Source: Clostridia bacterium
GTDB taxonomy: Bacteria; Bacillota; Clostridia; Christensenellales; Aristaeellaceae
Assembly: GCA_045599485.1 (NCBI GenBank)
Contig: JAZRWA010000020.1
Span: 1 to 15,404, forward strand
Direction of reading: 5' to 3'
DNA length: 15,404 nucleotides
This document shows, piece after piece, positions 749-15,404 of this stretch. Made by a program: the position numbers and the translations under genes. Positions within the stretch are counted from its first letter, which is position 1. Each line of letters opens with the position of its first letter. The notes beneath the pieces are model-generated. The model worked only from the letters and a program-made list of their open reading frames with translations. It was not told where the DNA came from and ran no database searches.

Positions 749-774
749 TTTATGCCCCCCGGATGGGGTATAAT
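745..774 (+). promoter_or_regulatory. Candidate sigma-A promoter for the DUF1385-prmC operon
   Basis: TTGATT (745-750), 18-nt spacer, TATAAT (769-774). It lies about 55 nt upstream of ATG 828 and overlaps the addA stop. Confidence 0.4.
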
Positions 775-827
775 ATACAGGAAAAAGTGTTTTGTAAGCG
801 GTTTTGCCGCTTTGGAAAGGAATTTTT

Positions 828-1847
828 ATGAGCAAAAAAGACGAACCCAAGCGCGTCGACATTGGCGGTCAGGCCGTCCTGGAAGGCGTCATGATGCGCT
901 CTCCCGAGTGGGTCGCCCTGGCGGTGCGCCGTCCCGACGGCTCCATCGTCATGAAGCGCGACCCCTGGGTCGCCCCCGCCAAGAAGCACAAGTGGATGGG
1001 GCTGCCCTTTATCCGCGGTGCCGTCAGCATGGCCATGATGCTCACCGTGGGCATGAAAACGCTGTCCGACAGTGCCAAGATGAGCGGACAGGAGGAGGAA
1101 GAGCCCTCCAAATTCGAAAAATGGCTGTCCCAGAAGCTGGGCAAGAGCATTGAGACCGTGGTCATGGCGGTCGCCGCCGTGCTGGCGGTGGTACTGAGCG
1201 TGGGGCTGTTTGTGCTCCTTCCCAACGCCATCATCAAGCTGTTCCCCGATTCGGGCTCCAGCGGCATGCTGCTGATGAAAAACCTCATCACCGGTCTGGT
1301 ACGCACCGTCATTCTGGTGGGCTACATGATGCTGTGCCGCCGCATTCCCGATATGCTGCGCACCTTCCGCTATCACGGCGCCGAGCACAAAACGGTATAC
1401 TGCAACGAGCACAACCTTGAATTGACGCCCGAAAACGCGCAGCAGTTTACCACCCTGCACCCCCGCTGCGGCACCAGCTTTATCCTCATCACCTTCATTC
1501 TTTCCATCATTTTCTACAGCATCATTGATGTTCTGGTGCTAATTCTTACCGGATACAACATGGGTAACAGCTACCTGCTGCGTGTATTGAGCCGCATCGT
1601 GCTGCTGCCCCTGGTGGCGGGCATCAGCTATGAGGCGCTGTTCTTCCTCGCGCATCACGAGGGCAAGGCCTGCGACATCCTGCGCAAGCCGGGCATGCAG
1701 CTGCAGCGTCTGACCACGGCGGAGCCCGATGCCGCCATGCTGGAAGTCGCCATTGCCGCCATGAAGGCCGCCAAGGGCGAACCCATGGAAGGCGAAGTCA
1801 CCCCCGAGGGCTACGTCATCGTGTCCCCGGCAAAGGAGAACGCATGA
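828..1847 (+). CDS. DUF1385 (YqhQ-like) membrane protein
   Basis: Motifs GGQAVLEGVMMR and YHGAEHK, several hydrophobic helices and high GC3 codon bias. ATG 828 is preceded by GGAAAGGAA (813-821). The track ORF starts earlier at 804, but 828 has the RBS. The TGA stop overlaps the prmC start (ATGA 1844-1847). Confidence 0.85.
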   Translation: MSKKDEPKRVDIGGQAVLEGVMMRSPEWVALAVRRPDGSIVMKRDPWVAPAKKHKWMGLPFIRGAVSMAMMLTVGMKTLSDSAKMSGQEEEEPSKFEKWLSQKLGKSIETVVMAVAAVLAVVLSVGLFVLLPNAIIKLFPDSGSSGMLLMKNLITGLVRTVILVGYMMLCRRIPDMLRTFRYHGAEHKTVYCNEHNLELTPENAQQFTTLHPRCGTSFILITFILSIIFYSIIDVLVLILTGYNMGNSYLLRVLSRIVLLPLVAGISYEALFFLAHHEGKACDILRKPGMQLQRLTTAEPDAAMLEVAIAAMKAAKGEPMEGEVTPEGYVIVSPAKENA

Positions 1848-2674
1848 CTATCAAGCAAGCGCTGCGCCTTGGTACGCAGGCACTGGAAGCCGCTTCCGTG
1901 CCCGATGCCGCCTGGGACGCGGCGCTTCTTCTTGCCCACGTGACCTCAAAGCCCGCGCTCTGGCTGCGGGCAAACGGCTTTGAGGAGCTGGGAAGCCCCC
2001 TTTATGAGCAATTTGACGCGCTCATCGCCCGCCGCGCCGCGCGGGAACCGCTGCAGTACATTCTGGGTTCGGTGGCTTTTGAAGGCGTGGAAATTGCCGT
2101 ATCGCCCGATGCCCTGATCCCCCGCATGGATACCGAGGTGCTGTTTGAGCGGACGGCGCTGCGGCTGCGCGGCACCGAAAAGGTGCTTGATCTTTGCACC
2201 GGCACGGGCGTGCTCGCCATCGCGCTCAAGCACAGGTTCCCATCCCTCACGGTCTTTGCCGCGGATAAAAGCGATGCGGCGCTGGCGCTGGCGCAGATCA
2301 ACGCGCTGCGCAATCAAACCGCCGTTCATTTTCGTCAGGGCGATCTGTTTGAGGCGGTGGGGGAGGAACGTTTTGACCTCATTCTTTCCAACCCGCCCTA
2401 CATTTGCGCCGCGGATATGCGGACCCTGCAGGAGGAAGTGCTTCGGGAGCCGCGCATGGCGCTCTTTGGCGGCGAGGACGGGCTGGATTTTTACCGGCGC
2501 ATTGTCGCAGAAGCCCCCAACCACCTCGTGCCCGGCGGCGCTTTGCTGTTTGAGATCGCCTGCTCGCAGGCGGCCGATGTTTCCGCCCTGATGGCTTCTC
2601 ATTTTGATGCCATCACCGTCACCCGCGACCTTTCCGGTCTGGACCGCTGCGTCGAAGGGACGCTGCGGGGATAA
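1844..2674 (+). CDS. prmC: Peptide chain release factor N5-glutamine methyltransferase (PrmC/HemK)
   Basis: SAM-binding VLDLCTGTGVLA, catalytic NPPY (ILSNPPYI), REPRMAL/GGEDGL motif and LEPLQYILG-like REPLQYILG. Translationally coupled to the upstream gene. Stop TAA 2672-2674. Confidence 0.9.
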   Translation: MTIKQALRLGTQALEAASVPDAAWDAALLLAHVTSKPALWLRANGFEELGSPLYEQFDALIARRAAREPLQYILGSVAFEGVEIAVSPDALIPRMDTEVLFERTALRLRGTEKVLDLCTGTGVLAIALKHRFPSLTVFAADKSDAALALAQINALRNQTAVHFRQGDLFEAVGEERFDLILSNPPYICAADMRTLQEEVLREPRMALFGGEDGLDFYRRIVAEAPNHLVPGGALLFEIACSQAADVSALMASHFDAITVTRDLSGLDRCVEGTLRG

Positions 2675-2681
2675 GGACGAT

Positions 2682-2746
2682 GCAGGGGAACCACGCTTTC
2701 CGAAGCCGGAAAGCATGGTTCCCCTGCACCCCTCCGAGAAAGGGCA
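2682..2746 (+). repeat. Type-1 structured repeat, copy A1 (46-nt hairpin plus conserved tail)
   Basis: Hairpin GCAGGGGAACCACGCTTTCCG-AAGC-CGGAAAGCATGGTTCCCCTGC (2682-2727) followed by tail ACCCCTCCGAGAAAGGGCA. Near-identical copy at 8375-8439. Starts 7 nt after the prmC stop. Confidence 0.9.
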
Positions 2747-2763
2747 GATTCATTTCATTTTCA

Positions 2764-2838
2764 GGGGGAGAGGTACGCTTTTCGAAGCCGAAAAGCATAC
2801 CTCTCCCCCTGTGACCCCCTCTCGGAGAAAAGGCAGAC
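2764..2838 (+). repeat. Type-1 structured repeat, copy B1 (variant stem)
   Basis: Hairpin GGGGGAGAGGTACGCTTTTCGAAGCCGAAAAGCATACCTCTCCCCC (2764-2809) is identical to 11184-11229. Tail TGTGACCCCCTCTCGGAGAAAAGGCAGAC. It shares the central ACGCTTT..AAAGCAT core with the A copies. Confidence 0.9.
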
Positions 2839-2937
2839 TTTAGCATAACATCATAACACTCTTACTTCGGTGTCAGATGCTTTCTTCAAAGCAAAAAACG
2901 TATTGCATGCATATCCAGTAAAGGATTGGTGAAAAAA

Positions 2938-3171
2938 GTGAGCAAGATAATTGAAGCTGACATTTTATCAGAAGGCAGAAAGAGAATAAAAATTACACTA
3001 ATAAATGATGAAGTGATTTATGGTGTATCAATGGGAATTATTCCTGCTGTTGATAACGAAGGAGAATAGCTTGATTATGATGTGCTTGTTTTTGATGCGT
3101 ATTCTCCGAATTCATATTTCAAACTGACAGATGAAATGATCAAAAGTATTGAACAAGTGAATAGTATCTAA
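2938..3171 (+). CDS. Small hypothetical protein (about 77 codons) in a low-GC island, with an in-frame TAG at 3067-3069
   Basis: GTG 2938 (alternatives TTG 2926 or GTG 2929), with AAGGA at 2921-2925. Translation: VSKIIEADILSEGRKRIKITLINDEVIYGVSMGIIPAVDNEGE-TAG-LDYDVLVFDAYSPNSYFKLTDEMIKSIEQVNSI-TAA. The frame stays open for 33 more codons after the TAG in AT-rich DNA, and a strong terminator follows. No family recognised. Confidence 0.35.
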
Positions 3172-3198
3172 CATATAGCGTTTTTGTTTATGAAAAAG

Positions 3199-3223
3199 GC
3201 ACTGATCACAATCAGTGCTTTTT
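3199..3223. terminator. Rho-independent terminator, bidirectional in appearance
   Basis: GCACTGAT (3199-3206), loop CACA, ATCAGTGC (3211-3218), then TTTTT (3219-3223). AAAAA precedes it at 3193-3197. It sits 28 nt after the small-ORF stop. Confidence 0.6.
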
Positions 3224-3274
3224 ATCAAGAGTAACTGTTCAATATAGCAGTAACGGTATTCATCAGTAAAATAA

Positions 3275-3326
3275 CACCCTTGTCCTGATGTCAGAAACCT
3301 TTCATCAGGGCAAGGGTGCATTTTTT
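3275..3326. repeat. Type-2 hairpin repeat (ATAACACCCTTG... family), terminator-like
   Basis: CACCCTTGTCCTGATG (3275-3290) pairs with CATCAGGGCAAGGGTG (3303-3318) with one T:G pair, followed by CATTTTTT. Related copies at 11277-11316, 13363-13405 and 14705-14747. Confidence 0.75.
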
Positions 3327-3338
3327 CATTTAAAGAAC

Positions 3339-3396
3339 CGCTTTTTCGCGGAGGGCTTGGGAACCGCCCTTTTGGACTTCAAAAAGGGGGTTCCCA
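3339..3396 (-). repeat. Type-1 structured repeat, copy C1 (inverted orientation)
   Basis: Inverted tail CGCTTTTTCGCGGAGGGC (3339-3356), then hairpin TTGGGAACCGCCCTTTTGG-ACTT-CAAAAAGGGGGTTCCCA (3357-3396). Very similar to 14769-14828. It lies 52 nt downstream of the minus-strand hydrolase stop. Confidence 0.85.
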
Positions 3397-3448
3397 TATC
3401 CTTTTCCGTCTCGTCTTCAGGGCGGGGGATCTCGCCCTGGTTCAGCGA

Positions 3449-4750
3449 TTACTGGGCGGCGCTGTGGCGGATGGTCATGCCGCGGGGAGCGGTATAGACG
3501 GTCTCAAAGCCCTTCCAGTAGTTGACACCGTAGATGCAGTTGGCGCCGACGGGCTCCAGCACATCCAGGTATTCCATCTTTTCGGTCTCGCCCTTCAGCT
3601 TGGCATCCAGGAAAGCGGTGATGAAGTGATCGGTATAGCCGTTCACATTCCACAGATCCCAGATAACGTCGCCCCAGCGGCGCATGTCAGCCAGGGAGCG
3701 ATCCTGCACATCGACGGGCACGGGGTTGGTGATGATGCTGTGATCCAGCATATCGAAGGTCACAAAGTAACGATCGGTATTGACGGTCTTGGCATACATA
3801 TCCAGCACCTGGGCATGGGGCACGATGGTGTCGTAGGTGCCCTGCATCCACAGGGTGGGGGTGTCGATGTTCACAAAGCTGGACTCGTCAAACATGGGCT
3901 GACCCCAGGGGGCGCACAGCACGGCAGCGCTCAGGCGCTTGTCGCCGACGTAGTCTTCAGCTTCGAGCAGCAGGTCTTCATAAGCGGCGATGCGGGCATC
4001 GGCAGCGATGGCGTCCTTGCTCAGCTTGGCACCCAGGGTGCGCAGCAGGCCGTAACCGCCGAAGCTGTAGCCGATCATACCGACGCATTCAGGCTTGAGC
4101 ATGCCGGCCAGGAAGCCTTCGGCATTCAGGCCCTCGAGGGCGTCGATGGTGTGGCGCTGGTCCAGCGTACGGTTCATGATGGCGCTGATCCAGGCGATGT
4201 CGGGGTTGAAGGCGGACACGCCGGTATCGGTGTGCTCCAGAGCCAGAACCACATAGCCCTTGGTGGCCAGGTTCTCGCCCAGGTGGCTCATCAGGTAGCG
4301 GCTGCCGGGATAGCCGTGGGTCACGATGACCACGGGATAGGGACCATCAGCCAGATAGGGATCGGCGTCACGCATGGCGCGGCCCACGAAATCAAAGGCT
4401 TCCAGGTCGTTGGTGTCGCTGCGGCCCATGTGATCGGTGTAGGTGGACAGCTGCACGGCGCCTTCGGCGACCACAGCGGGATACCACACTTCCACGGTCA
4501 GCACGCGGTCATGCAGGGGACGGGGATTTTCGGCGGTAATGGCGGCCAGGTCGACCTGGTCGGGGGTCACGATCTCAATGGTGCGCACGCCGATGGCGTA
4601 CTCGCCGCGCTTGGCCAGCGCGGGGGAGGAGGCGATCGGGTCACCGATCACAGAGCCGACGGGATAGCCTTCTTCGTACACCAGCGTATCGGCGACGGCC
4701 GCGGAGAACAGCATCACAAGGGCGAACAGGATAGCAAGAATTCGCTTCAT
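3449..4750 (-). CDS. Secreted alpha/beta hydrolase (dienelactone hydrolase / PAF-acetylhydrolase-like esterase)
   Basis: 433-aa ORF. N-terminal signal peptide MKRILAILFALVMLFSAAVA, nucleophile elbow GYSFGG (GxSxG), VTHGYPG oxyanion-type region, and later QGTYDT (Asp) and LDHS (His) candidates. RBS GAAGGAGAA on the minus strand (4762-4770). Stop TAA 3449-3451. Confidence 0.85.
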   Translation of the reverse strand: MKRILAILFALVMLFSAAVADTLVYEEGYPVGSVIGDPIASSPALAKRGEYAIGVRTIEIVTPDQVDLAAITAENPRPLHDRVLTVEVWYPAVVAEGAVQLSTYTDHMGRSDTNDLEAFDFVGRAMRDADPYLADGPYPVVIVTHGYPGSRYLMSHLGENLATKGYVVLALEHTDTGVSAFNPDIAWISAIMNRTLDQRHTIDALEGLNAEGFLAGMLKPECVGMIGYSFGGYGLLRTLGAKLSKDAIAADARIAAYEDLLLEAEDYVGDKRLSAAVLCAPWGQPMFDESSFVNIDTPTLWMQGTYDTIVPHAQVLDMYAKTVNTDRYFVTFDMLDHSIITNPVPVDVQDRSLADMRRWGDVIWDLWNVNGYTDHFITAFLDAKLKGETEKMEYLDVLEPVGANCIYGVNYWKGFETVYTAPRGMTIRHSAAQ

Positions 4751-4983
4751 GGTTTTTTGTTTTCTCCTTCTTCATTTTAATGGAACGGGGGAAGAGTATC
4801 AACAAGCCTCCTCCCGCGGCAGCAGCCGACGGTTTCAAGGCGGTTTTTGCGGAAATGCGCACAGAATCGATCCCCTTTCCATGCTGTGCATTCCGCGGTC
4901 TTCCGTCTGTTTTTCCGTTTCTTTCTCTGCCGGGGGGCTGCGTGTTTCTGTTTCTGCCGGACAGGCGCGTCCGGTTTTGCCGA

Positions 4984-5012
4984 TTGCTTTTTCAACGCAC
5001 CTTGCGTATAAT
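4984..5012 (+). promoter_or_regulatory. Candidate sigma-A promoter for the 5136 gene
   Basis: TTGCTT (4984-4989), 17-nt spacer, TATAAT (5007-5012). Confidence 0.4.
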
Positions 5013-5135
5013 GAAAATACTCACGCTGCGTTCATTTACACCATCGGGTCATTTGCTTTCCATATTATACAATTTTAAATGTTTTGTGTCAACAATATTC
5101 TTTACATTTCAAATCTTTTTGTAAGGAGTTCTCCC

Positions 5136-6578
5136 ATGAAAAAGATATTGTCCTTCCTCATCGCCCTGCTGCTGCTTTTTTCCTGCGCCGGCGCGGATTC
5201 CCTCATCTACGGCAGCGGCACCTGGGAATGCCCGTCCTGCGGCAGCCTCAACTGCGGTCAGCACTGCGGTGCCTGCGGCGCCCCCATCCCGCTGTGGCAG
5301 TGCCCTGCCTGCAGCGGCTTCATGACCTCGCCCTACTGCGTCAACTGCGGCATGGAAAAATACTATTCCCTCGGCACCGCCGCGCTGGCGGTGAGCGATT
5401 TTGAAGCCGCCATCGGTTATCTGGAATCGTCCCGCAGCCCCGAAGCCTGGGACGCGCTGGCCGGGGCGTGGGTTCAGGCGGCCCGAAGCTTCGAATATGA
5501 CCACGACTATGAGAATGCCCTTTATTGCTATCAGAATGCCGAAGTCTACGGCGCGGATGTTTCCGACAAAGTCTCCCACTGCAGCTACCAGCTGGCCACC
5601 GTGCTGTACCGGGAAGGCGATTATCCGGCCGCCATGGAGCTGCTGGATTCCCTCGGTGATTACAGGGACAGTGCCGACGCTGCCCGTGATTGCCGCTATC
5701 AGCAGGCCCTTTTATAGGAAGAAAACGGCCGGTTCGCCGAGGCGGCCGCCCTTTACGCGCAGATTCCGGGGTACAAGGACAGCGACAGCCGCTATCGTAC
5801 GCTCACCTGCGCGCTGGCGTCCGAATGCTTTGAAAACGGTCAGTACGACGAAGCCGCCGCGCTCTACGGCGAATTTGAATACGATGATGACTGCATGTCC
5901 CAGCGCACGGAGGCGCTTCGCCGCAGCGACCTGGTCAAACGCTTCACCCTCCAATGCTGCCTCCGCGTGGCAGATGCCGACGGCGCAATTGCCTACCGAT
6001 ACGGCTCCGCCACCGCGTATCTTGATGACCTGAACGAAGGCGATTCCCTGCAGCTGCTCCTGGCGCTGTCGGGGGCAGCTTCCGCTTCCGCGGATGTGCA
6101 GCTGCGCTGGAACGGCGGCGAATTACAGACCGCGGCGCTCTCCGCGTCTGAATTCGAACAGGCCGAATTTGTTGTCTCCCTCCCCGCCGAGGCGGGCACC
6201 TTCCCCTTTGAGGTCTTTGTCGGCGGTGTTAAGTTCAAGGAAGATACCGCCGAGATCCTGCCCTCGGGCGGTCATCGTCCCAGGGCGGTGAGATCGGAAA
6301 GTACCCGCACCGCTTCCGCCTCCGCCAATGGCTTTATGGGCCCCGTGTATGTCAAAATCACCGTAACTGACAGCAACACCCTCAGCTCCATCGTCATCGG
6401 CGATCACCGCTTCGAGGAGATCCTCGGCAGCAAGGTGCTGGAGGAGAGTTATCAGCAGCAGTTCATCGGCAAATCGCTGCCGCTTGGCCCGAATGATGTG
6501 GACGCCTGCGCCGGCGCGACCATCACCTCCGCCGCCGTGGTGGAGGCCGTCAACGCCGCCTTTGCCTCGCTTCCGTAA
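5136..6578 (+). CDS. Putative lipoprotein with double zinc ribbon, TPR-like repeats and a C-terminal FMN-binding (FMN_bind) domain. The frame contains an in-frame TAG at 5715-5717.
   Basis: RBS TAAGGAG (5122-5128), then ATG 5136. Signal and lipobox-like MKKILSFLIALLLLFSCAG, then CPSCG..CGACG..CPAC..CVNCG zinc ribbons. Repeats of the type YREGDYPAAMELL / ENGRFAEAAALY / ENGQYDEAAALY lie on both sides of the TAG. Track ORFs 5079-5717 and 5895-6578 are in the same frame, with no other stop between them. The C-terminus GFMGPVYVKITV...VDACAGATITSAAVVEAVNAA matches the FMN_bind flavinylation-type motif. Stop TAA. Confidence 0.7.
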
Positions 6579-6596
6579 AACCGATACCCTTCCCTC

Positions 6597-6633
6597 GGGG
6601 GACCGTTCCGTACGGTTCCCCGTTTCTTTTTTT
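6597..6633 (+). terminator. Rho-independent terminator
   Basis: GGGGACCGT..loop..ACGGTTCCCC (one bulge) followed by GTTTCTTTTTTT. It starts 19 nt after the 6578 stop. Confidence 0.6.
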
Positions 6634-6737
6634 GTCGTTTGCAAAAAACGTTTGCCCCGCGGCCGCCCTCCCGCAAACGTTGGTAAAGGCGTGCTGCTTC
6701 ATAAGTCGTTGCAAAAATGTTTATCTTTTGTTAGAAA

Positions 6738-7048
6738 TGTGGATAAAATCCCCTGTGGATAACTTTTGTGGATAACTTCGGTGGATAAATGGAGTTATCC
6801 ACAGGGTTTTTGCACATTGAACACGGGAAAATCAACAAAATCAAGGGTTTTTGCACCAAATTCGGTGGATAACTATGTGGATAATGTGGATAACCTCCTT
6901 TTTCTTCCCTTGCGCATATCTTGTATGTAAGCCGCGGGAGCACCACAAGACCATCATTTCTGGGCAAAATATCCCCTTTTTTTTGAGGTTATCCACCGAG
7001 TCACGGTGGATAAAAATTGGAAAAGTGGATTTTTTCGCTTGTGGATAA
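6738..7048. promoter_or_regulatory. DnaA-box cluster (oriC-like or DnaA-titration/regulatory locus)
   Basis: Perfect TTATCCACA or its complement at 6738-6746, 6754-6762, 6767-6775, 6795-6803 (opposite orientation), 6876-6884, 6885-6893 and 7040-7048. One-mismatch TTATCCACC at 6780-6788, 6864-6872, 6989-6997 and 7005-7013. A weak box at 7024-7032. The cluster lies in a 650-bp non-coding, lower-GC gap. Confidence 0.85.
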
Positions 7049-7147
7049 CCTTTCGCCGCGGGAGCGAACAGCGGCGGAATAAGAGGCGATGTCTTTCAAA
7101 AAGCGTCTTTGATGTCATAAAACCGTAACAATTAAAGATCCGAATCA

Positions 7148-7156
7148 TGGTATACT
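7148..7156 (+). promoter_or_regulatory. Possible extended -10 promoter element for the 7229 gene
   Basis: TGgTATACT (7148-7156). There is no convincing -35. Confidence 0.3.
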
Positions 7157-7228
7157 GATACAGGCGGAAAAAAGCGGCTCACGCCGTCCCTCCGCCGCAA
7201 AAAGCGAACGATCCGAAAGGAAAACGAT

Positions 7229-8350
7229 ATGATCGACAGCAGAAAACACGTATGTCTGGCCACCGCCTCGGCGGGGCTGGAGGGCGTGGTCAAGCGGGAG
7301 CTTCTCTCCCTGGGCTTTGAAGACGCCAAGGCGGAGCTGGGCGCCGTGCGCTTCACCGCCGATTACGCGGGCATGATGAAGGCCTGTCTGTGGCTGGCGT
7401 GTGCCGACCGCGTACTCATTGTGGTCAGGGAAGGCCACGCCGAGACCTTTGAAGACCTTTTTCAGCTGGTATTGAGGGCGCCGTGGAGCGATTATCTGCC
7501 CAAGGATGCCGCCATCCCCGTGTCGGGGCGCTGCTCGCGCAGCAAGCTGATGTCCGTGCGCGACTGCCAGGCCATCACCAAAAAGGCCATTGTGGAGCAC
7601 ATGAAGCGCGCCTTCCACACGCAGCTTTTGCCCGAAACGGGCCCGCGCTTTCAGGTCGATGTGGCCCTGCACGGCGACACGGCGCGCTTGACGCTGGATG
7701 CCAGCGGCGAGGCGCTCAACCGCCGCGGCTACCGCACCTGGAACGGCGAAGCGCCCCTGCGCGAAACGCTGGCCGCCGCCATGGCGCGCCTGGCCTTCTG
7801 GGACAAGCGTCAGCCCCTGCACGATCCCTGCTGCGGCACGGGCACGCTGCTCATTGAAGCGGCCTTTTACGCCGCGCGCCGCGCGCCGGGGCTGAACCGC
7901 TCCTTTGACCTGGAGCGCTGGCCGTATGCCGACGCGCGCGAGCTTTCCCGCCTGCGGGAGGAGGCCGCCGCCGCCTTTGACCCGTCCCTCATTCCCCCCA
8001 TCACGGGCAGCGACCTCGATCCCAACGCTTTGGAGCTGTGCCACCGCCACATCCGTCAGGCGGGGCTGGAATCCTACATCCGCGTTTACCCTGCCGACCT
8101 GCGGCAGCTGACGGTTGAGGGGCCTTCGCCGTGCTTTATTGCCAACCCGCCCTACGGCGAGCGCCTTGGCGACAAAAAGCAATGCGAAGAATTGTACCGC
8201 GCCTTTAAGCCCCTCATGCTGCGCCACCCCGGCTGCAGCCTGAACCTGATCACCTCCCACCCCGGCTTTGAGCGCGTTGCCGGCCTGCGCAGCCGCAAAA
8301 AGACGCGCATGTACAACGGCCGCCTCGAGTGCGATTACATGAGGTTTTGA
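7229..8350 (+). CDS. THUMP-domain class I SAM-dependent RNA methyltransferase (COG0116, RlmL/YpsC-like)
   Basis: 373 aa. The N-terminus ATASAGLEGVVKRELLSLGF is typical of the family. SAM motif DPCCGTGTLLIEAA and catalytic NPPYGERLG. RBS GAAAGGA (7215-7221). Stop TGA. Confidence 0.85.
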   Translation: MIDSRKHVCLATASAGLEGVVKRELLSLGFEDAKAELGAVRFTADYAGMMKACLWLACADRVLIVVREGHAETFEDLFQLVLRAPWSDYLPKDAAIPVSGRCSRSKLMSVRDCQAITKKAIVEHMKRAFHTQLLPETGPRFQVDVALHGDTARLTLDASGEALNRRGYRTWNGEAPLRETLAAAMARLAFWDKRQPLHDPCCGTGTLLIEAAFYAARRAPGLNRSFDLERWPYADARELSRLREEAAAAFDPSLIPPITGSDLDPNALELCHRHIRQAGLESYIRVYPADLRQLTVEGPSPCFIANPPYGERLGDKKQCEELYRAFKPLMLRHPGCSLNLITSHPGFERVAGLRSRKKTRMYNGRLECDYMRF

Positions 8351-8374
8351 CGAAGGATTTTGACGAAAGGTTTT

Positions 8375-8439
8375 GCAGGGGAACCACGCTTTCCGAAGCC
8401 GGAAAGCATGGTTCCCCTGCACCCCTCCGAGAAAGGGCA
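8375..8439 (+). repeat. Type-1 structured repeat, copy A2
   Basis: Matches 2682-2746 exactly by eye across hairpin and tail. It starts 24 nt after the methyltransferase stop. A degenerate half-copy with the tail CCGAGAAATGGAAAACTTTATTGCACAGCAC follows at about 8507-8560. Confidence 0.9.
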
Positions 8440-8553
8440 AACTTTATTGCGCAGCACAGCACCCTTGCACGTACGAAAGTTGCTTTCAGCAAAACAAGGG
8501 GAGTTCAGCATGCTCTTCCCAAGCCTGCCCCGAGAAATGGAAAACTTTATTGC

Positions 8554-8586
8554 ACAGCACCCCAGCCCGGATGCTGTTTGTTTTTT
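8554..8586 (+). terminator. Possible Rho-independent terminator
   Basis: CAGCACCC / GGATGCTG stem with one mismatch, followed by TTTGTTTTTT. Confidence 0.4.
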
Positions 8587-8723
8587 CCCGCCGCTTTTCC
8601 CTTGTTCATGTGCCGTTTTTTACCAACACTGCCATTGACAGAAAGCCTCTTTTTGACATACAATAAGTGTATAATTCAGGAAAATTTCCGCCATATCGGC
8701 GGGTAAAAGAAAGGAAATCAAAC

Positions 8724-9893
8724 ATGCTTCAGAAAAAGTGTGTAGCCATGCTGTTGGCCGGCGGTCAGGGCAGCCGTTTGGGCGTGCTGACCAAGCATAT
8801 GGCCAAGCCCGCCGTTCCCTTCGGCGGCAAATACAGGATCATTGACTTCCCGCTGTCCAACTGCACCAACAGCGGCATTGACACCGTGGGTGTTCTGACG
8901 CAGTATCGTCCTCTGGAGCTGAATGCCTACATCGGCAACGGCGCCCCCTGGGATCTGGACGTCAACAACGGCGGCGTGTACGTGCTGCCCCCCTATCAGA
9001 CCGGCGCCACCGGCGAATGGTACAGCGGCACCGCCAACGCCATTTACCAGAACCTGGCCTTTATTGCCCAGTACAATCCCGAGCATGTGCTCATCCTGTC
9101 CGGTGACCACATCTACAAGATGGATTACAACGACATGCTGCGCCACCACATCGATACCGATGCCGACGTGACCATTGCCGTCCGTCAGGTGCCGTGGGAG
9201 GATGCCAGCCGTTTCGGCCTGATGAACACCGATGCCTCCGGCCGCATCATTGAGTTTGAAGAGAAGCCCAAGAACCCCAAGAGCAACAACGCCTCCATGG
9301 GTGTGTACATCTTCAAGTGGGAAAAGCTCCGCGATTATCTGATCGCCGACGAAGCCAACCCCAACAGCTCCAACGACTTTGGCAAAAACATCATCCCCAA
9401 CATGCTCAATGACGGCTGCATGATGAGCGCCTACAACTTCAACGATTACTGGAAGGACGTCGGCACCATCGACTCCCTGTGGGAGTCCAACATGGACCTG
9501 CTGACCGATCCCCTGCCCATTGACCTGTATGACCGCAAGTGGCGCGTGTATGCCCGCAACTTCGGCTCTCTGCCCCAGTACATCGCCGACGGCGCTGTCG
9601 TCAAGGATGCCCTGGTGACCGAAGGCTGCGAAGTGTACGGCACCGTGGAGCACAGCGTGCTGTCCACCGACGTCAAGGTGGAAGAAGGCGCTGTCGTCAA
9701 GGACAGCGTGATCCTGCCCGGCGCCACCATCAAAAAGGGCGCTGTGGTCATCCGCGCCATCGTGGCGGAAAAGGCCGTCATCGGTGAAAACGCCGTGGTC
9801 GGCGCCGAAGGCGGCGAGATCGCCGTGGTCGGCAATAATACCACTATTCCCGAGGGCGGCACCGTCGCTCCCGGCGAACAGGTTGGCGAGTAA
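8724..9893 (+). CDS. glgC: Glucose-1-phosphate adenylyltransferase (ADP-glucose pyrophosphorylase catalytic subunit)
   Basis: [40 protein letters not shown] and a C-terminal left-handed beta-helix repeat region. ATG 8724 with GAAAGGAAA upstream; the track ORF begins earlier at 8667. Stop TAA. Confidence 0.92.
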
Positions 9894-9908
9894 AGGAGGC
9901 GGCCGAAT

Positions 9909-11030
9909 ATGAACAATCTGATGGGTCTGATCTTCACCGGTGAAAACCTCGGTCATCTGGGCACCCTGACCGCCATGCGCGATGTGGCGGCTGTGCCTGT
10001 GGCCTCCCGTTACCGCATTGTGGACTTTATCATCTCCTCCATGGTCAACAGCGGCGCCCGCAACGTGGGCCTGATCGTGCAGCAGAACTACCACAGCCTG
10101 ATGGATCATCTGGGCACCGGCAAGGAATGGGACCTGCACGGCAAGCGCCGCAGCCTGACCATTCTGCCCCCCTACACCATGCCCGGCAGCATCGGCATGT
10201 ACAACGGCCTGCTGGACAGCATCAAGAGCAACATCCACTTCCTGCGCCGCTGCACCGAGCGCTATGTGGTGGTCACCGAAGCCAACATGCTCTACACCGC
10301 GCGCTTTGACGAAATGCTCGCCAAGCACGTGGAAACGAACGCTGACATCACCGTGATGTACAACAGCGATCCCGCCCTCATCCGCAGCAGCTGGGGCCGC
10401 TACATCAATGTGGCGGTGGACGGCCGTGTCACCGATCTGGAGATCAACCCCGTGCTGCCCAACAACTCCAAGAGCATGATGGGTGCCTTCATCATCCGCC
10501 GTGAGCTGCTCATTGAGCTGGTGGACCGCGCCATTGCCCGCGGCCAGTATCACTTCACCCGTGAGGTGCTCATCGACGCCATCCACAACGGCACCTACAA
10601 GGTGTACGGCTGGGAAAACACCAACAAGGTGTGGCGCATCGAAAACGTCAACGATTATTACAACGCCTCCATGGATCTGCTGTGCAGCGATTCCAAGGCG
10701 TCCCTGTTCAAGCCCGAGTGGCCCATCCTCACCCCTGTGCATGACGAAATGTCCTCCCGTCTGTGCCCCGGCTCCCAGGTCAAAAACAGCCTGATCGCCG
10801 ATGGCTGCAAGATCGAGGGCACCGTTGAAAACTGCGTCATCTTCCGCGGTGTGCAGATCAAAAAGGGTGCTGTGGTGCGCAACTGCGTCATCATGCAGGA
10901 CAGCATGATCATGGAAAACGCGCATCTGGAGGGCGTCATCCTGGACAAGGAGTGCATCGTGCGCGAGGAAGTGGTCATGATCTCTCCCAAGTCCTGCCCG
11001 AACGTGCTGCCCAAGGGCGCTGTCATCTAA
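9909..11030 (+). CDS. glgD: Glucose-1-phosphate adenylyltransferase subunit GlgD (non-catalytic)
   Basis: GlgC paralogue lacking the GGxGxRL signature (IFTGENLGHLGTLT), with RYRIVDF present. AGGAGG at 9894-9899. Lies directly downstream of glgC, as in Firmicutes glgCD pairs. Confidence 0.9.
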   Translation: MNNLMGLIFTGENLGHLGTLTAMRDVAAVPVASRYRIVDFIISSMVNSGARNVGLIVQQNYHSLMDHLGTGKEWDLHGKRRSLTILPPYTMPGSIGMYNGLLDSIKSNIHFLRRCTERYVVVTEANMLYTARFDEMLAKHVETNADITVMYNSDPALIRSSWGRYINVAVDGRVTDLEINPVLPNNSKSMMGAFIIRRELLIELVDRAIARGQYHFTREVLIDAIHNGTYKVYGWENTNKVWRIENVNDYYNASMDLLCSDSKASLFKPEWPILTPVHDEMSSRLCPGSQVKNSLIADGCKIEGTVENCVIFRGVQIKKGAVVRNCVIMQDSMIMENAHLEGVILDKECIVREEVVMISPKSCPNVLPKGAVI

Positions 11031-11042
11031 ATAACATTTTTT

Positions 11043-11100
11043 GCAGGGGAACCACGCTTTCAGGGCCTGAAAGCATGGTTCCCCTGCACCCTTCCAGAAA
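11043..11100 (+). repeat. Type-1 structured repeat, copy A3
   Basis: GCAGGGGAACCACGCTTTCAGGGCCTGAAAGCATGGTTCCCCTGC (11043-11087) plus a degenerate tail. It starts 12 nt after the glgD stop. Confidence 0.85.
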
Positions 11101-11116
11101 TAATAATCATCATTAA

Positions 11117-11160
11117 GGGGGAAAGGTACGCTTTTCAAAGCCGAAAAGCATGCCCGCCCC
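11117..11160 (+). repeat. Type-1 structured repeat, degenerate copy
   Basis: GGGGGAAAGGTACGCTTTTCAAAGCCGAAAAGCATGCCCGCCCC retains the central core, but the outer stem is decayed. Confidence 0.6.
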
Positions 11161-11183
11161 AAACCTCGATAATAAAGTAATAA

Positions 11184-11258
11184 GGGGGAGAGGTACGCTT
11201 TTCGAAGCCGAAAAGCATACCTCTCCCCCTTTGACCCCCTCACGGAGAAAAGGCGGTC
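11184..11258 (+). repeat. Type-1 structured repeat, copy B2
   Basis: The 46-nt hairpin is identical to 2764-2809. Tail TTTGACCCCCTCACGGAGAAAAGGCGGTC. Confidence 0.9.
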
Positions 11259-11276
11259 TATAACATACATCATAAC

Positions 11277-11325
11277 ACCCTTGCCTCGATGAGAATATCT
11301 TCATCAAAGCAAGGGTACTTTTTTA
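11277..11325 (+). terminator. Type-2 hairpin repeat, probably acting as the glgD terminator
   Basis: ACCCTTGCCTCGATGA / TCATCAAAGCAAGGGT stem (two C:A mismatches) followed by ACTTTTTT. Confidence 0.5.
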
Positions 11326-11334
11326 CAATTCAAT

Positions 11335-11362
11335 ACCCTTGCACTGGCATTCATGCAAGGGT
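11335..11362. repeat. Short type-2-like hairpin
   Basis: ACCCTTGCA (11335-11343), 10-nt loop, TGCAAGGGT (11354-11362). Confidence 0.5.
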
Positions 11363-11383
11363 GTAACGCACAGGATATCATAC

Positions 11384-11449
11384 TGCCCTTTCTCGGAGGG
11401 GATTAAAAGGGGAACCATGCTTTCCGGCTTCGGAAAGCGTGGTTCCCCT
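11384..11449 (-). repeat. Type-1 structured repeat, inverted copy
   Basis: Inverted tail TGCCCTTTCTCGGAGGGG (11384-11401), then hairpin AGGGGAACCATGCTTTCCGGCTTCGGAAAGCGTGGTTCCCCT (11408-11449). It lies 16 nt downstream of the minus-strand glgA stop. Confidence 0.9.
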
Positions 11450-11465
11450 TTGAAAATCGTCTTTC

Positions 11466-13154
11466 TTACTCCGCGTCGGCTTTCTTCGCGGCAGGCTTGC
11501 GGGTGCGCTTGGGCTTGGCAGGCGCTTCTTCCCCCTCCGCAGCGGGCTTCTTCGCAGCAGGCTTGCGGGTACGCTTGGGCTTCGCGGGCGCTTCCTCGGC
11601 CACGGCTTCGATCACGACCTCTTCCACCACGGGCGTTACGATCTCCTCGTCCGCGGGCGCTTCGGCCACCGCAGGCACGGCCGCTTCCGCCGCGTCCTCC
11701 GCCACGGGGGCGGGGGCGCTGGGCAGCATGCTGGCGTACAGGGACTCATACACCTCAGCGGAGTGCGTCCAGCTGTAATCGCCCTCCATGCCGCGCACCA
11801 TCAGGTTCTGCCACACATCGCTCTTCTCGCGGAAGTAGCGCACCGCACGGCGGATGGTAAACAGCATGTCATGCGCGTTGTAGTTGAAGAAGGTAAAGCC
11901 GTTGCCGGCGTTGTTGTAATGGTTGTAGCTCAGCACGGTATCACGCAGGCCGCCGGTCTCGCGCACGATGGGCACGCAGCCATAGCGCAGGGCGATCATC
12001 TGGGTGAGGCCGCAGGGCTCAAAGCGGCTGGGCATCAGCATCATGTCGGCACCGGCATAAATGCGGTGCGCCAGACCGTTATCCATCTGGAAGCGGGCGG
12101 CGACACGGCCGGGATACTGCTGCTCCGCCCAGCTGAAGAGGTTGACATAGCGGCTTTCGCCCATGCCCAGCACCACCAGCTGCACGTTTTCTTCCATGAT
12201 CTGGCCGATCACGTGATCCACCAGGTCCAGGCCCTTCTGGCTGGACAGGCGGGTGACCATGCCGATGACGGGCACGGAGGGATCGACGTTGAGCCCCAGC
12301 TCCTGCTGCAGGCTTTCCTTGCAGGCGGCACGGCCGCTCATATCGGCAAGGCTGTAATTGAAGGGGATCAGCGCGTCATCCGCGGGGTTCCAGGCGTTGA
12401 TGTCGATGCCGTTGAGCACGCCGGACAGGTTGGCACGGCGGGAACGGAGCAGGCCATCCATGCGCTCACCGTAATAGGTGGTCTGGATCTCCTCGGCATA
12501 GCTGGGGGACACGGTGGTGATCTCATCGGAATACACCAGCGCGGCCTTCATAAAGTTGGCGCAGCCGAAGCTGGCCAGCTTGTCCTCGGTGAAGTCGCCC
12601 TCGTTCAGGCTCAGCACATCGCGCAGCTGATCGATGCCGAACACGCCCTGATACTGCAGGTTGTGGATGGTGTACACCGTGCGGATGCCCTGATAGAAAT
12701 CCACACCGCTGTACTGGATCTTGAGCAGCGCGGGGATCATGCCAGCCTGCCAGTCATGGGCGTGCAGAATGTCGGGCTTGAAGCCCAGCAGGCGCATGCC
12801 CTCCAGCACAGCACGGTCAAAGAAGGCATAACGCTCGTACTCGTCGCCGCCCGCGCCGTACACATAATCACGCTTGAAGTAGTATTCGTTGTCGATAAAG
12901 TACCACTTGACGCCCTCGGCCTCGATCAGCTCGATGCCGCAGTACTGCTTTCTCCAGCCCAGAGTGACTTCAAAATTCATCACATGGGTCATGGCATCCT
13001 TGTACTTGTCGGGGATCATGCCGTACTTGGGGATCATGACCGCCACATCATTGCCGCGCTTGGCCAGCACGGGCGCCAGAGCGCCCACCACGTCCGCCAG
13101 ACCGCCGGTCTTGATGAAGGGCACGCATTCGCTCGCCGCAAACAAAATCTTCAT
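11466..13154 (-). CDS. glgA: Glycogen synthase (ADP-glucose type) with an unusual ~84-aa low-complexity C-terminal extension
   Basis: MKILFAASECVPFIKTGGLADV (KTGGL motif), then typical GT5 features. ATG at 13152-13154 is preceded by AAGGAG on the minus strand. The track ORF extends to 13343 through repeat DNA, and I reject that extension. Stop TAA 11466-11468. Confidence 0.92.
   Translation of the reverse strand: MKILFAASECVPFIKTGGLADVVGALAPVLAKRGNDVAVMIPKYGMIPDKYKDAMTHVMNFEVTLGWRKQYCGIELIEAEGVKWYFIDNEYYFKRDYVYGAGGDEYERYAFFDRAVLEGMRLLGFKPDILHAHDWQAGMIPALLKIQYSGVDFYQGIRTVYTIHNLQYQGVFGIDQLRDVLSLNEGDFTEDKLASFGCANFMKAALVYSDEITTVSPSYAEEIQTTYYGERMDGLLRSRRANLSGVLNGIDINAWNPADDALIPFNYSLADMSGRAACKESLQQELGLNVDPSVPVIGMVTRLSSQKGLDLVDHVIGQIMEENVQLVVLGMGESRYVNLFSWAEQQYPGRVAARFQMDNGLAHRIYAGADMMLMPSRFEPCGLTQMIALRYGCVPIVRETGGLRDTVLSYNHYNNAGNGFTFFNYNAHDMLFTIRRAVRYFREKSDVWQNLMVRGMEGDYSWTHSAEVYESLYASMLPSAPAPVAEDAAEAAVPAVAEAPADEEIVTPVVEEVVIEAVAEEAPAKPKRTRKPAAKKPAAEGEEAPAKPKRTRKPAAKKADAE
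11481..11598 (-). repeat. 66-nt-period tandem duplication inside the glgA 3' end
   Basis: 11481-11532 and 11547-11598 are near-identical. Each encodes EEAPAKPKRTRKPAAKK. Confidence 0.85.
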
Positions 13155-13224
13155 ATGGGTAATTCTCCTTAAAATAGAATGAATTATGATATTACAACAT
13201 CGGTTTTCACACAAAACCAGCTTC

Positions 13225-13253
13225 ATAATACCACATTTTGCCGCTTTACGCAA
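13225..13253 (-). promoter_or_regulatory. Candidate glgA promoter
   Basis: The minus strand reads TTGCGT (13253-13248), 17-nt spacer, TGgTATTAT with -10 at 13230-13225. Confidence 0.45.
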
Positions 13254-13279
13254 GGGAACGGCAGCATTGGATGTTGATC

Positions 13280-13486
13280 GGGGAGGGTACGCTTTTCGTG
13301 CCGAAAAGCATGCCCTCCCCCAACCCCTCCTGAGAAAAGGCAATCATGATCATACAGCATAACACCCCTGCTCCGATGACAGATTTCTTCATCCAAAGCA
13401 AGGGTACAATTATTTGATGAAATGATTGCTTTTTCTCGGAAGGTTTGGAAACCCTGCTTTTTGGCTTCAAAAAGCGTGGTTTCCAA
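13280..13486. repeat. Composite MITE-like element: type-1 hairpin + tail, central type-2 hairpin, inverted tail + type-1 hairpin
   Basis: Left hairpin 13280-13320, tail CAACCCCTCCTGAGAAAAGGCA 13321-13342. CATAACACCCC and the type-2 hairpin at 13363-13405. Inverted tail TGCTTTTTCTCGGAAGGT at 13428-13445, right hairpin TTGGAAACC...GGTTTCCAA at 13445-13486. No ORF. Confidence 0.75.
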
Positions 13487-13499
13487 GAACCCCCGTCCG

Positions 13500-14618
13500 T
13501 TATTCTAATAGCGGCTCGAGCACCGTGTTCATCACGTCCATGCCGCGCTGAGAAAGAAGAAGATGGGAACGTGTCAGCAAAGCACGCCCGTCCGCGATGG
13601 CGGGGGCCAGGGCGGCGCCGTAGCGTGTCATCAGATCCACACCGTAGCGCTGTTTAAATTCTGCAAGCGCAATGCCCTGCGTCAGCCGCATCCCCAGCAT
13701 CACGGCCTCAAACAGCATTTCGTCCGGGCCGATGTGCTCTGTCTCGCCCGCCTCGCCGCCAAGGTACGCGTCCAGCGTTTGCGGGTTGGTGCGGCGGTCA
13801 TTCTGCCACAGGGAGGCCGCGGCGCAGCCGAAGCCCAGGTAATCCTCGCGTTTCCAGCAGTTCACGTTGTGCCGGCATTCCTCGCCCGGCACGGCAAAAT
13901 TGCTGATCTCATACTGCAAAAGCCCATTTTCACGGAAGATACTGCGGCACAGCTCATACTGCGCGCGGTCCTCTTCATCGCCCGGCAGGGTCAGCCGTCC
14001 GTGTGTCAGATCATCATACAGCGGCGTGCCCTCCTACGGGATCAGCGCGTAGCAGCTGATGTGCTTTACGCCCAGCCCCATCACAAAGCGCGCGGTCTGT
14101 TCGGCGTCCCGCATCGTCATGCCGGGGAGTGCCAGCATCATATCGGCATTGAGCCGCTCAATGCCCGCCGTACGCACGATGGCCGCGGCGTTGACCGCGT
14201 CCTATACCGTATGGATGCGCCCGATGCTTTTGAGCAGCCGGTCGCTTGCGCTCTGCACGCCCATCGATACACGGTTGACGCCGCCTTCAAAAAGCGCGGC
14301 GGCTTTTTCCGCCGTGATGGTACCGGGGTTCATTTCGCTGGTCCATTCGGTGTTTTCCGCCAGAGGAAAGCTGTCCCGAACCGCCTGACACAGCCTGTAC
14401 AGCAGTTCTTCCGGCAGCAGCGTGGGCGTGCCTCCGCCAAAGAACACCGTGTCGGCCATGGGATGCCCCAGCGCGTCCGACCGGCGGCGCATTTCCTCCG
14501 CCACCGCGTCCACATAGCGCTGCATATCGTTTTCCCGCCCCGCCCAGCTGGCAAAGTCGCAGTAGCGGCACTTGCTTTTGCAAAACGGCACATGCACGTA
14601 GATTCCCAGATGCTTCAT
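13500..14618 (-). CDS. hemW: Radical SAM heme chaperone / oxygen-independent coproporphyrinogen-III oxidase-like protein (HemW/HemN family). The frame contains two in-frame TAG codons (14202-14204 and 14034-14036).
   Basis: MKHLGIYVHVPFCKSKCRYCDF (CxxxCxxC), FFGGGTP, NRVSMGVQS, GRIHTV-TAG-DAVNAAAIVRTAGIERLNADMMLALPG..., SCYALIP-TAG-EGTPLY..., YEISNFA...HNVNCW. Track ORFs 14202-14618 and 13500-13919 are in the same frame, and I translated the gap with no other stops. RBS GGAGGTG. Stop TAA 13500-13502. Confidence 0.8.
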
Positions 14619-14652
14619 GGCACACCTCCGAGGGGATTATAACACAGATTGT

Positions 14653-14828
14653 CAGGGGAAACCACGCTTTCCGAGAAAGGGCAGTTTTTTTCCTTTCTGC
14701 ATAACACCATTGCTCTGATGACGGGTTTAGATATCAGGGCAATGGTGCTGTTTTATTTAAATAATGATTGCTTTTTCGCGGAGGGCTTGGGAACCGCCCT
14801 TTTTGGCCGCAAAAAGGGTGGTTCCCAA
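14653..14828. repeat. Composite MITE-like element with an internally deleted left arm
   Basis: Collapsed type-1 arm CAGGGGAAACCACGCTTTCCGAGAAAGGGCAG (14653-14684). CATAACACC plus type-2 hairpin at 14705-14747. Inverted tail TGCTTTTTCGCGGAGGGC at 14769-14786. Hairpin TTGGGAACCGCCCTTTTTGGCCGCAAAAAGGGTGGTTCCCAA at 14787-14828. Confidence 0.75.
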
Positions 14829-14838
14829 CAATCCTTTC

Positions 14839-14867
14839 TTTACACATCGTCCCATCTGTGGTATGGT
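14839..14867 (+). promoter_or_regulatory. Candidate promoter for the 14898 gene
   Basis: TTTACA (14839-14844), 17-nt spacer, TGgTATGGT with -10 at 14862-14867. Confidence 0.45.
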
Positions 14868-14897
14868 AGAAAAAATACCGTAAAGGAGCGTAAAACC

Positions 14898-15404
14898 ATG
14901 AAAAAGCTGATTTCCCTGCTGCTGGCGGCGCTGATGCTGCTTTCCCTGTGCGCTTCCGCTTTTGCGGAGGAGCCCGTGCTGGCCTCCACCAAGTCCCTGA
15001 CCGCGCTGCTGGACAGCCAGAACCTCAACTACACCTGCTACGGTCTGGATGATGACGGCGATGACCACATTTCCATCGGCGTATCCAACGACGATCTGAA
15101 CCTCAAGTACACCATGGAGCTGTTCTTCAGCGATGACCTGGAGGCCGCTTATGTATACGTCTGGTACCTGATCAGCTACAGTGCCGAAAATCAGTCTGCT
15201 GTGACCGCCCTGTGCAACGAGATCAATTCCGCCTTCCGCTATGCCACCTTTGTCGCCGATGACCGTGACAACACCGTGACCGTCAAGAACGCCGCCTTCC
15301 TGCGCAGCGTGGACGATGCCGGCGCCATCGTGTTTGACATGATGACCACCATGGCCAGCGTGATCGATGAAGTGTATCCCTACCTGGCCGAATACGCCAA
15401 CTGA
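14898..15404 (+). CDS. Small secreted hypothetical protein (possibly YbjN-like fold; family call weak)
   Basis: RBS AAAGGAG (14882-14888), then ATG 14898. Signal peptide MKKLISLLLAALMLLSLCASAFA, high GC3 bias, and the gene ends at TGA 15402-15404. The upstream part of track ORF 14649-15404 is repeat DNA. Confidence 0.75.
   Translation: MKKLISLLLAALMLLSLCASAFAEEPVLASTKSLTALLDSQNLNYTCYGLDDDGDDHISIGVSNDDLNLKYTMELFFSDDLEAAYVYVWYLISYSAENQSAVTALCNEINSAFRYATFVADDRDNTVTVKNAAFLRSVDDAGAIVFDMMTTMASVIDEVYPYLAEYAN

Follow-up and report, generated by a model that had tools for sequence, protein, structure and literature searches.

A candidate lineage-specific family of interspersed palindromic repeats in an uncultured Clostridia clade

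Introduction

The spacers of a 15,404-nt stretch of DNA from an uncultured member of the Clostridia (the window; GCA_045599485.1, contig JAZRWA010000020.1, positions 1–15,404, forward strand) contain repeated copies of two hairpins, T1 and T2, raising the question of what these repeats are and whether their structure is maintained as RNA or as DNA. The window has a G+C content of 58% and carries housekeeping genes on both strands. With a probability of about 0.55, the repeats constitute a new lineage-specific family of interspersed palindromic DNA, similar to REP/BIME and BOX elements and including a terminator module like SPRITE. The observations behind this reading are the dispersal of copies, subfamilies shared between genomes, compensated stems, turnover, and hairpin-first placement at gene ends, while mobility is what we infer from dispersal, turnover, and assembly breaks.

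For gut Clostridia, small interspersed palindromes have barely been described, in contrast to the extensive work on proteobacteria and streptococci. A family this dense (12 units in 15 kb) affects both the quality of metagenome-assembled genomes (MAGs) and the annotation of the lineage, and the combination of strict polarity, one fixed mismatch, and subfamilies common to genomes from different samples and hosts offers a tractable case for separating DNA-level from RNA-level selection. Copy counts given here cover the 15-kb window and fragments of two relatives, approximately 50 kb of the lineage in all. The sequences compared included a syntenic 9.7-kb contig from a different sample (L116; 85–95% nucleotide identity) and five short contigs (L117–L121), all reached through members of the protein clusters of the window, and four loci of a horse-gut Clostridia MAG (Horse_feces223) with true repeat copies.

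The T1 hairpin

The original prediction listed at least 12 T1 hairpins, and all 12 were recovered with a covariance model (R1) trained on 11 copies and describing an 18-pair stem. Ten copies scored 55–84 bits (2681+, 2763+, 3339–3400(−), 8374+, 11042+, 11183+, 11384–11452(−), 13277+, 13427–13489(−), and 14769–14831(−)). The copy at 11116+ scored 40 bits because its 3′ arm fails to match its 5′ arm, and an internally deleted copy at 14654+ scored 15 bits. The core GCTTTY-N-RAAAGC occurs nine times in the window against an expectation of 0.04, a count reached in 0 of 200 shuffles. When R1 was applied to 701 kb of unrelated DNA from 97 genomes, each of which holds the 24-nt core by chance, there were two matches, both ≤24 bits. 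The model can be used as a marker for the clade.

In orientation F, each unit consists of a head, a variable outer stem, an inner stem, a loop, the complementary outer stem, and a tail. The head is purine-rich with the motifs GGA(A)CGAT and ACGGGGG (ACGA within 30 nt in 16/24 copies); copies that lie away from gene ends (14769–14831; L116:5752–5814) have the head too, which makes it part of the element. The hairpin measures approximately 20 bp, with an outer stem that differs by subfamily, a conserved inner stem ((A)CGCTTTyC / GrAAAGC(A)T), and a loop of 3–4 nt centred on AAGC or TGC. The tail, 17–20 nt long, reads CCCCTCC-GAGAAA-GGCA, with GAGAAA invariant. The centre ACGCTTTyC...GrAAAGCAT had been ascribed to every copy; it holds for 9 of the 12, while the copies at 3357 and 14787, in the same orientation, have (A/C)CCCTTTTTG...CAAAAAGGGC and the copy at 13445 has ACGCTTTTTG...CAAAAAGCAG. 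Likewise, the tail, also thought universal, is present in most copies, degenerate at 11089, missing after 11160, and replaced in right-hand arms by a variant of their own (CCTTCCGAGAAAAAGCA or GCCCTCCGCGAAAAAGC). The outer-stem variants quoted earlier were correct on re-inspection.

Compensatory change and a fixed mismatch

Stem statistics were calculated for 23 distinct T1 copies from three genomes across the 18 stem pairs. Stem cells were paired in 92.5% of cases, compared to 77.1% in shuffles, and two-sided changes occurred at 11 of the 18 pairs (64 such cells; 18 expected). The covariation score was 0.45 compared to 0.16 in shuffles (0/500 shuffles reached 0.45), and remained ≤0.14 in a control with slid partners that kept the relatedness of the copies. 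The two-sided changes and the covariation score support the proposal that structure is under selection: T1 stem pairing is kept by compensatory change, beyond recent copying. A coding function for the repeats was rejected, as compensatory stems argue against a peptide.

A fixed mismatch is found in all copies: one stem position is unpaired (C.A) in 19/23, and in subfamily D the mismatch is shifted one pair further out (A.C). With A.C or C.A on one strand, the complementary strand is always G.T, and this complementary strand folds more stably in 24/24 copies, by approximately 4 kcal/mol. Outside the fixed mismatch, the stem contains 357 Watson-Crick cells, three G.T, and three A.C; G.T and A.C being equally rare, both strands pair equally well and there is no RNA-like excess of wobble pairs. 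A structure under RNA-only selection usually tolerates G.U. We read the pattern as selection on a DNA or single-stranded DNA (ssDNA) hairpin with the mismatch marking the strand or orientation, and selection on such a palindrome explains the pairing statistics as well as selection on RNA does, or better. A strand bias in the tail helix (G.T versus A.C, 18 versus 5) was left unused, as it rests on two or three columns.

Two other explanations touch on these numbers. If the repeats were sites read as duplex DNA (operators, sites for a nucleoid protein or gyrase, or paired uptake sequences), with GCTTTyC/GrAAAGC recognized by a dimer, the near-invariant inner stem and loop flanks beside the variable outer stem would fit, as would the two equally palindromic strands. 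This is quite improbable given that the outer stem is free in sequence yet complementary, with 11 two-sided pairs that a duplex reader would not need, and that a conserved mismatch and an asymmetric loop would be pointless in duplex DNA. A host-selected RNA cassette in the 3′ untranslated region (UTR), serving as terminator and mRNA stabilizer, non-mobile, and spread only by occasional recombination, is possible but doubtful. The strand that would be transcribed carries the A.C mismatch and is the weaker by approximately 4 kcal/mol in all 24 copies, G.U pairs are not in excess, and tandem arrays of two or three T1 copies occur; it gains, however, from the maintenance of subfamilies across genomes and from the placement described next.

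Placement at gene ends

At 13/13 independent gene ends (six in the window, three in L020, two in L081, and one each in L069 and L112), the first unit is oriented hairpin-first and begins 6–52 nt past a TAA or TGA stop codon, a polarity with a probability of 2^-13 under random orientation. Orthologous gene ends in L116–L121 agree with this polarity. Such placement favours the 3′-UTR cassette, as do the terminator shape of T2 with its T-run and the symmetry of composite elements between convergent genes. The cassette is countered by T1 hairpins without a U-tract, by copies in promoter regions (14654–14828; L116 5604–5814), by canonical terminators that exist without T1 (6596–6622), and by fast turnover of the repeats between strains.

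An RNA-level role likely follows from position, with a hairpin near the terminating ribosome and termination at T2. Nevertheless, the weaker transcribed strand, the lack of a U-tract after T1, and the copies in promoter regions suggest that an RNA role is not the primary selective agent.

T1 as a canonical intrinsic terminator was rejected on account of its C-rich tail and missing U-tract. A consensus terminator scan of the window listed a single T1 hairpin (11183–11230, read on the minus strand) and no T2 copy. The canonical terminator of the lipoprotein gene at 6596–6622 has the stem CGGGGGACCG/CGGTTCCCCG followed by TTTCTTTTTT, and the subfamily A outer stem (GGGGAACC/GGTTCCCC) resembles it. 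This likeness may be a sign that T1 derives from local terminator stems or has converged on them.

Distribution and turnover

R1 identified 12 copies in the window (15.4 kb), all intergenic, six in L116, and 10 in the horse-MAG loci. A genome scan with the bare core pattern returned 115 loci, 111 of them by chance and four true, all from Horse_feces223. The window copy at 13427–13489 is 98% identical to horse-MAG L020:4621–4683 and ≤81% identical to any other window copy; similarly, L116:5504 reaches 96% identity with a horse copy and 82% with its best match inside L116. With identity between genomes above identity within them, the variants either predate the genomes or move between them.

No match was found in JGI metagenomes (core plus tail pattern and right-arm pattern), in IMG/VR viral contigs (pattern scan), or in plasmid and phage collections (BLAST with a composite element). 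A protein search with a repeat-derived open reading frame (ORF) yielded no candidate repeat-bearing contigs, and a full-text literature search for the motif strings retrieved primers only.

Orthologous spacers of the window and L116 differ in their repeats, while the flanking genes are 85–95% identical. The glgD–glgA spacer of the window holds three left units, two T2, and an A-type right arm, where L116 has one C-T2-D composite; at the RlmL 3′ end, an A-type unit in the window corresponds to an A′-type unit in L116; and downstream of prmC, approximately 2.2 kb of window DNA bounded by repeat modules has no counterpart in L116. Part of this difference is a low-GC island (2870–3260; 32.5% G+C compared to 58% for the window) that separates a tail and a T2 that are contiguous in L116. 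The island contains a 78-codon ORF (2936–3172) with one in-frame TAG and no Pfam match, and its own bidirectional terminator (3199–3218). Both the island and the hydrolase gene (3449–4750) are missing from L116, so repeat modules border differences in gene content.

Tandem duplications occur at two gene-end/T1 junctions: three copies of GGGGATAAGGACGATA at L116 3250–3300, in which the unit includes the prmC stop codon, and two copies of TGACGAAGGATTT at 8348–8373 of the window, past the RlmL-like stop codon. Slippage may have produced these, or they may be traces left by repeated rounds of insertion and excision.

A high-copy repeat breaks de Bruijn assemblies, and five independent short-read contigs (L117–L121; Logan, ENA) start or stop inside T1 or T2, which indicates that the repeats fragment assemblies of this organism. 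Gene callers also emitted spurious ORFs across the repeats. Because short-read assemblies do break at repeats, and the particular arrangement in the window stands without independent confirmation, an assembly artefact of collapsed or mis-joined repeats in a metagenome-assembled contig was considered. It is scarcely credible, as identical gene-to-T1 junctions appear in independent assemblies from different samples (L116–L121) and the family is also present in the separate horse-gut MAG.

T2 and the composite element

T2 has the form CACCCTTGC...GCAAGGGTG followed by a T-run (≥4 T within 8 nt after 9/11 copies), and from these features looks like an intrinsic terminator. Two T2 patterns gave 6 and 2 matches in the window against 0.00–0.01 expected. 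The five positions proposed earlier for this second family (3276, 11277, 11335, 13364, and 14705) and the degenerate copy near 2851 were all confirmed, and a T2 remnant (8452–8512) and tail remnant (8524–8567) can be added. T2 is conserved chiefly in sequence, with weak covariation, though the copy at 14705 has a compensated change from C-G to A-T.

A unit may stand alone, in tandem with others, or inverted against a second unit with zero, one, or two T2 between them. The polar composite of approximately 210 bp runs from the head through T1 and tail, T2 and T-run, and an AT-rich spacer to an inverted tail and inverted T1. In composites from the three genomes, the left arm belongs to subfamily A, B, or C and the right arm to D or A, and eight composites align with a mean column identity of 64%. 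The predicted consensus fold has three domains: T1, a long tail/inverted-tail helix enclosing T2, and the inverted T1. Folding z-scores relative to shuffles were −11.9 and −10.0, one per strand.

A very stable three-domain fold (z = −11.9), a consensus structure over three genomes, and a terminator-like T2 within the composite would suit independently transcribed small RNA genes with the composite of approximately 215 nt as the RNA. That the composites are such genes is nonetheless very improbable: no conserved promoter was seen by inspection ahead of them, the strands fold equally well, T2 shows no strand bias (G.T versus A.C, 18 versus 19), half-elements and tandem T1 units are common, and no Rfam family matches. 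At E ≤ 1, the Rfam search produced only look-alikes of miRNA precursors (22–34 bits compared to thresholds of 60–111).

From left to right along the window, the first unit is a subfamily A T1 with tail (2681–2746, +; hairpin 2681–2728; tail CCCCTCCGAGAAAGGGCA; 83.6 bits) that begins 7 nt past the prmC stop codon. It is followed by a subfamily B T1 with tail (2762–2837, +; hairpin 2762–2811; stem GGGAGAGGT/ACCTCTCCC; 77.7 bits), a degenerate T2 module detected by repeat finding (2846–2895, +), a T2 with the T-run GCATTTTTTC (3271–3320, +), and a right arm of subfamily D with a D-type tail (3340–3396, −; hairpin 3357–3396; TGGGAACC/GGTTCCCA; 57.3 bits) that points at the 3′ end of the minus-strand hydrolase gene. 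The subfamily A unit at 8374–8439 (+; with tail; 83.6 bits) is 100% identical to 2681–2746, and its hairpin starts 23 nt past the RlmL-like stop codon (26 nt to the inner stem); decayed modules follow it at 8452–8567 (+), the tail remnant being joined there by the start of a T2.

Past the glgD stop codon by approximately 11 nt lies a subfamily A unit with a 3-nt loop and a degenerate tail (11041–11100, +; 55 bits), and then a tail-less, chimeric or decaying T1 (11116–11160, +; 40.3 bits) with a B-like 5′ arm (GGGAAAGGT) and a C-like 3′ arm (GCCCGCCCC), so that its outer stem is unpaired. The adjacent composite (11182–11452, +) comprises a T1 of subfamily B with tail, a T2 with T-run (11272–11321), a short second T2 (11330–11366), an inverted tail (11384–11401), and an inverted subfamily A T1 (11405–11452) that points at the glgA stop codon. 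The canonical composite (13279–13486, +) is made up of a subfamily C T1 (GGGGAGGGT/GCCCTCCCC) with tail, a T2 (13359–13410), an inverted tail (13427–13443), and an inverted subfamily D T1 (13445–13486; TTGGAAACC/GGTTTCCAA) that points at the HemW-like stop codon. Finally, a composite in a divergent promoter region (14654–14828, +) is missing the centre of its left T1, deleted between two TCCGA microhomologies so that the 5′ arm runs straight into the tail (14654–14685); it retains a T2 (14700–14750; CCATTG/CAATGG), an inverted tail, and an inverted T1 (14787–14828).

The repeats were originally thought to occupy most of the non-coding DNA, an overestimate: of the 3075 intergenic bases, 37% (modules) to 43% (blocks) belong to repeats, which fill 46–95% of six spacers and are missing from the remaining four.

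A possible mechanism

If the repeats are a palindromic DNA family, copies would spread or be exchanged as DNA, perhaps mobilized in trans by an enzyme that recognizes the folded single strand and, alternatively or additionally, by recombination and gene conversion between copies. The selected entity would be the hairpin itself, and the A.C/G.T asymmetry would mark the strand or orientation used. Once placed, a copy would be transcribed within a 3′ UTR, where T1 could serve as a 3′ hairpin (an exonuclease barrier or a ribosome-proximal structure) and T2 as a terminator.

Several points weigh against a mobile palindrome family. The compensatory changes separate approximately 7–8 subfamilies and thus represent few independent events; the strand transcribed from upstream genes is the one bearing the A.C mismatch, and so the weaker fold; and strict polarity near stop codons could reflect host selection for function and not mobility. 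No transposase (RAYT, the IS200/IS605-like tyrosine transposase whose gene REP elements flank, or other) was present among the ORFs of the approximately 50 kb examined, and no related insertion sequence was found at those loci. No target-site duplication or clean empty site was identified, and no direct repeat was evident in the flanks listed, the ends of the element not being sharply defined. Membership in the GTAG/CGTC superfamilies of REP was rejected for lack of the defining tag.

A more specific version of the palindrome reading, in which the T1 unit is the substrate of an undescribed enzyme acting on folded ssDNA (RAYT-like or unrelated) that inserts it directionally and flush with stop codons, is unlikely. 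Were this so, Bacillota would gain its first REP-type system, and genes would receive a ready-made 3′-end cassette of hairpin and terminator. In a bolder version, tied to the apparent UAG-to-Glu recoding of the clade, hairpins just past true UAA and UGA stops would aid termination or the release of ribosomes in a cell that no longer recognizes UAG.

Comparison with known repeat families

REP elements form dimers and carry the tags that define the GTAG/CGTC superfamilies (PMC3733652) and have been located within 15 nt of stop codons (PMC12306157). The present repeats share with REP/BIME/REPIN the many copies of an imperfect extragenic palindrome (here 12 in 15.4 kb), arranged singly, in clusters, or as inverted head-to-head pairs of two unit types with conserved linkers, as well as subfamilies with distinct stems, a retained stem mismatch, strain-variable copy content, and a position often within approximately 15–20 nt of a stop codon (PMC12306157). 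They differ from REP in their longer stems (18–22 bp compared to 8–14 bp) and hairpins (42–48 nt compared to the usual 20–40 bp), in the additional head and 17–20-nt tail, in a linker that is itself a terminator-like hairpin, and in their host, as Di Nocera et al. reported no REP families in Clostridia. Within 10 nt of the stem, GTAG and CGTC were each found in 0/24 copies; GACG, the complement of a tag, was found there in 2/24 and at variable distance in the 30-nt head in 11/24. Together with Rfam scores nowhere near gathering thresholds, the absence of these tags leaves the repeats without a matching named family, in line with the original prediction, which could not assign them to one.

BOX elements are modular, and SPRITE elements lie near the 3′ ends of coding sequences in pneumococci (PMC3049150). 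BOX likewise belongs to Firmicutes and is intergenic, transcribable, and strain-variable, with an A-B(n)-C design in which terminal modules (here the tail and inverted tail) pair around an independently folding middle module (here T2, 0–2). It is distinguished from the present family by the fact that each terminal module here is also a strong hairpin alone and by the much stricter polarity at gene ends; the likeness is one of architecture, and the two are not known to be related in sequence. SPRITE resembles the present family as an interspersed duplex of approximately 18 bp that is enriched where coding sequences end (3′) and may plausibly have been recruited for termination. However, a SPRITE duplex is directly followed by a long U-rich tract, while T1 is followed by the C-rich (TGCA/AAA)CCCCTCC and only T2 has the T-run.

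MITEs such as Correia, RUP, and Nezha are likewise short non-coding sequences with extensive structure and imperfect terminal inverted repeats (here approximately 60–85 nt including the head), but the present family is GC-rich instead of AT-rich and has single arms as commonly as complete elements. Integron attC sites, which have RYYYAAC...GTTRRRY cores and follow promoterless cassettes in a single orientation, were rejected, as stem ends such as those of subfamily A do not fit GTTRRRY and the neighbours are housekeeping genes on both strands.

Gene content and other features of the lineage

The genes of the window encode the C-terminus of an AddA-like nuclease, a DUF1385 protein, PrmC, an alpha/beta hydrolase (minus strand), a TPR/FMN-binding lipoprotein, an RlmL-like methyltransferase, GlgC, GlgD, GlgA (minus strand), and a HemW-like radical-SAM protein (minus strand). 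The best match to GlgD outside its own 90% cluster is 58% identical, which marks the lineage as isolated.

In otherwise intact genes, every internal stop codon is TAG, and confidently assigned genes end in TAA or TGA. In the window, in-frame TAG codons occur in the AddA-like gene (50–52 and 473–475, +), in the small ORF noted above (3066–3068), in the lipoprotein gene (5715–5717), and at codons 195 and 139 of the HemW-like gene (13500–14618, −; codon 195 reads cta near 14034–14036). Others are found at 636–638, 1095–1097, and 3033–3035 of L116, and in L020 in ORFs 992–1684 and 1678–2763 and in a TruA ORF (− strand); genes affected in the horse MAG include a histidine kinase, a response regulator, and TruA. 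The other strain has GAG at three of the TAG positions (two AddA-like, one PrmC); one of these is a TAG of L116 PrmC that corresponds to GAG (Glu) in the E-P motif of the window PrmC. In the HemW-like protein, one TAG falls on an invariant Glu column (120/120 homologues) and the other on a column where Glu is commonest (53/120). On this sequence evidence, the pattern suggests a reassignment of UAG to Glu in the uncultured Clostridia clade that carries the repeats. No tRNA genes were present in the lineage sequence examined, and in the literature searched genome-wide UAG reassignment was reported only in archaea.

The GlgA C-terminus (11469–11600, −) contains a tandem 66-nt repeat (83% identical) that encodes a Lys/Ala-rich 22-residue unit (EEAPAKPKRTRKPAAKK). 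Cluster members are 562, 578, and 585 aa long, so the length of the tail varies between strains. A 650-bp spacer of 43% G+C between the lipoprotein gene and the RlmL-like gene, conserved in L116, holds 11 DnaA boxes (TTATCCACA, ≤1 mismatch) at 6738–7048, with a window total of 14 compared to 1.9 expected. No dnaA gene is adjacent to the cluster, and T1 and T2 avoid this spacer, an oriC-like region or a DnaA-box cluster.

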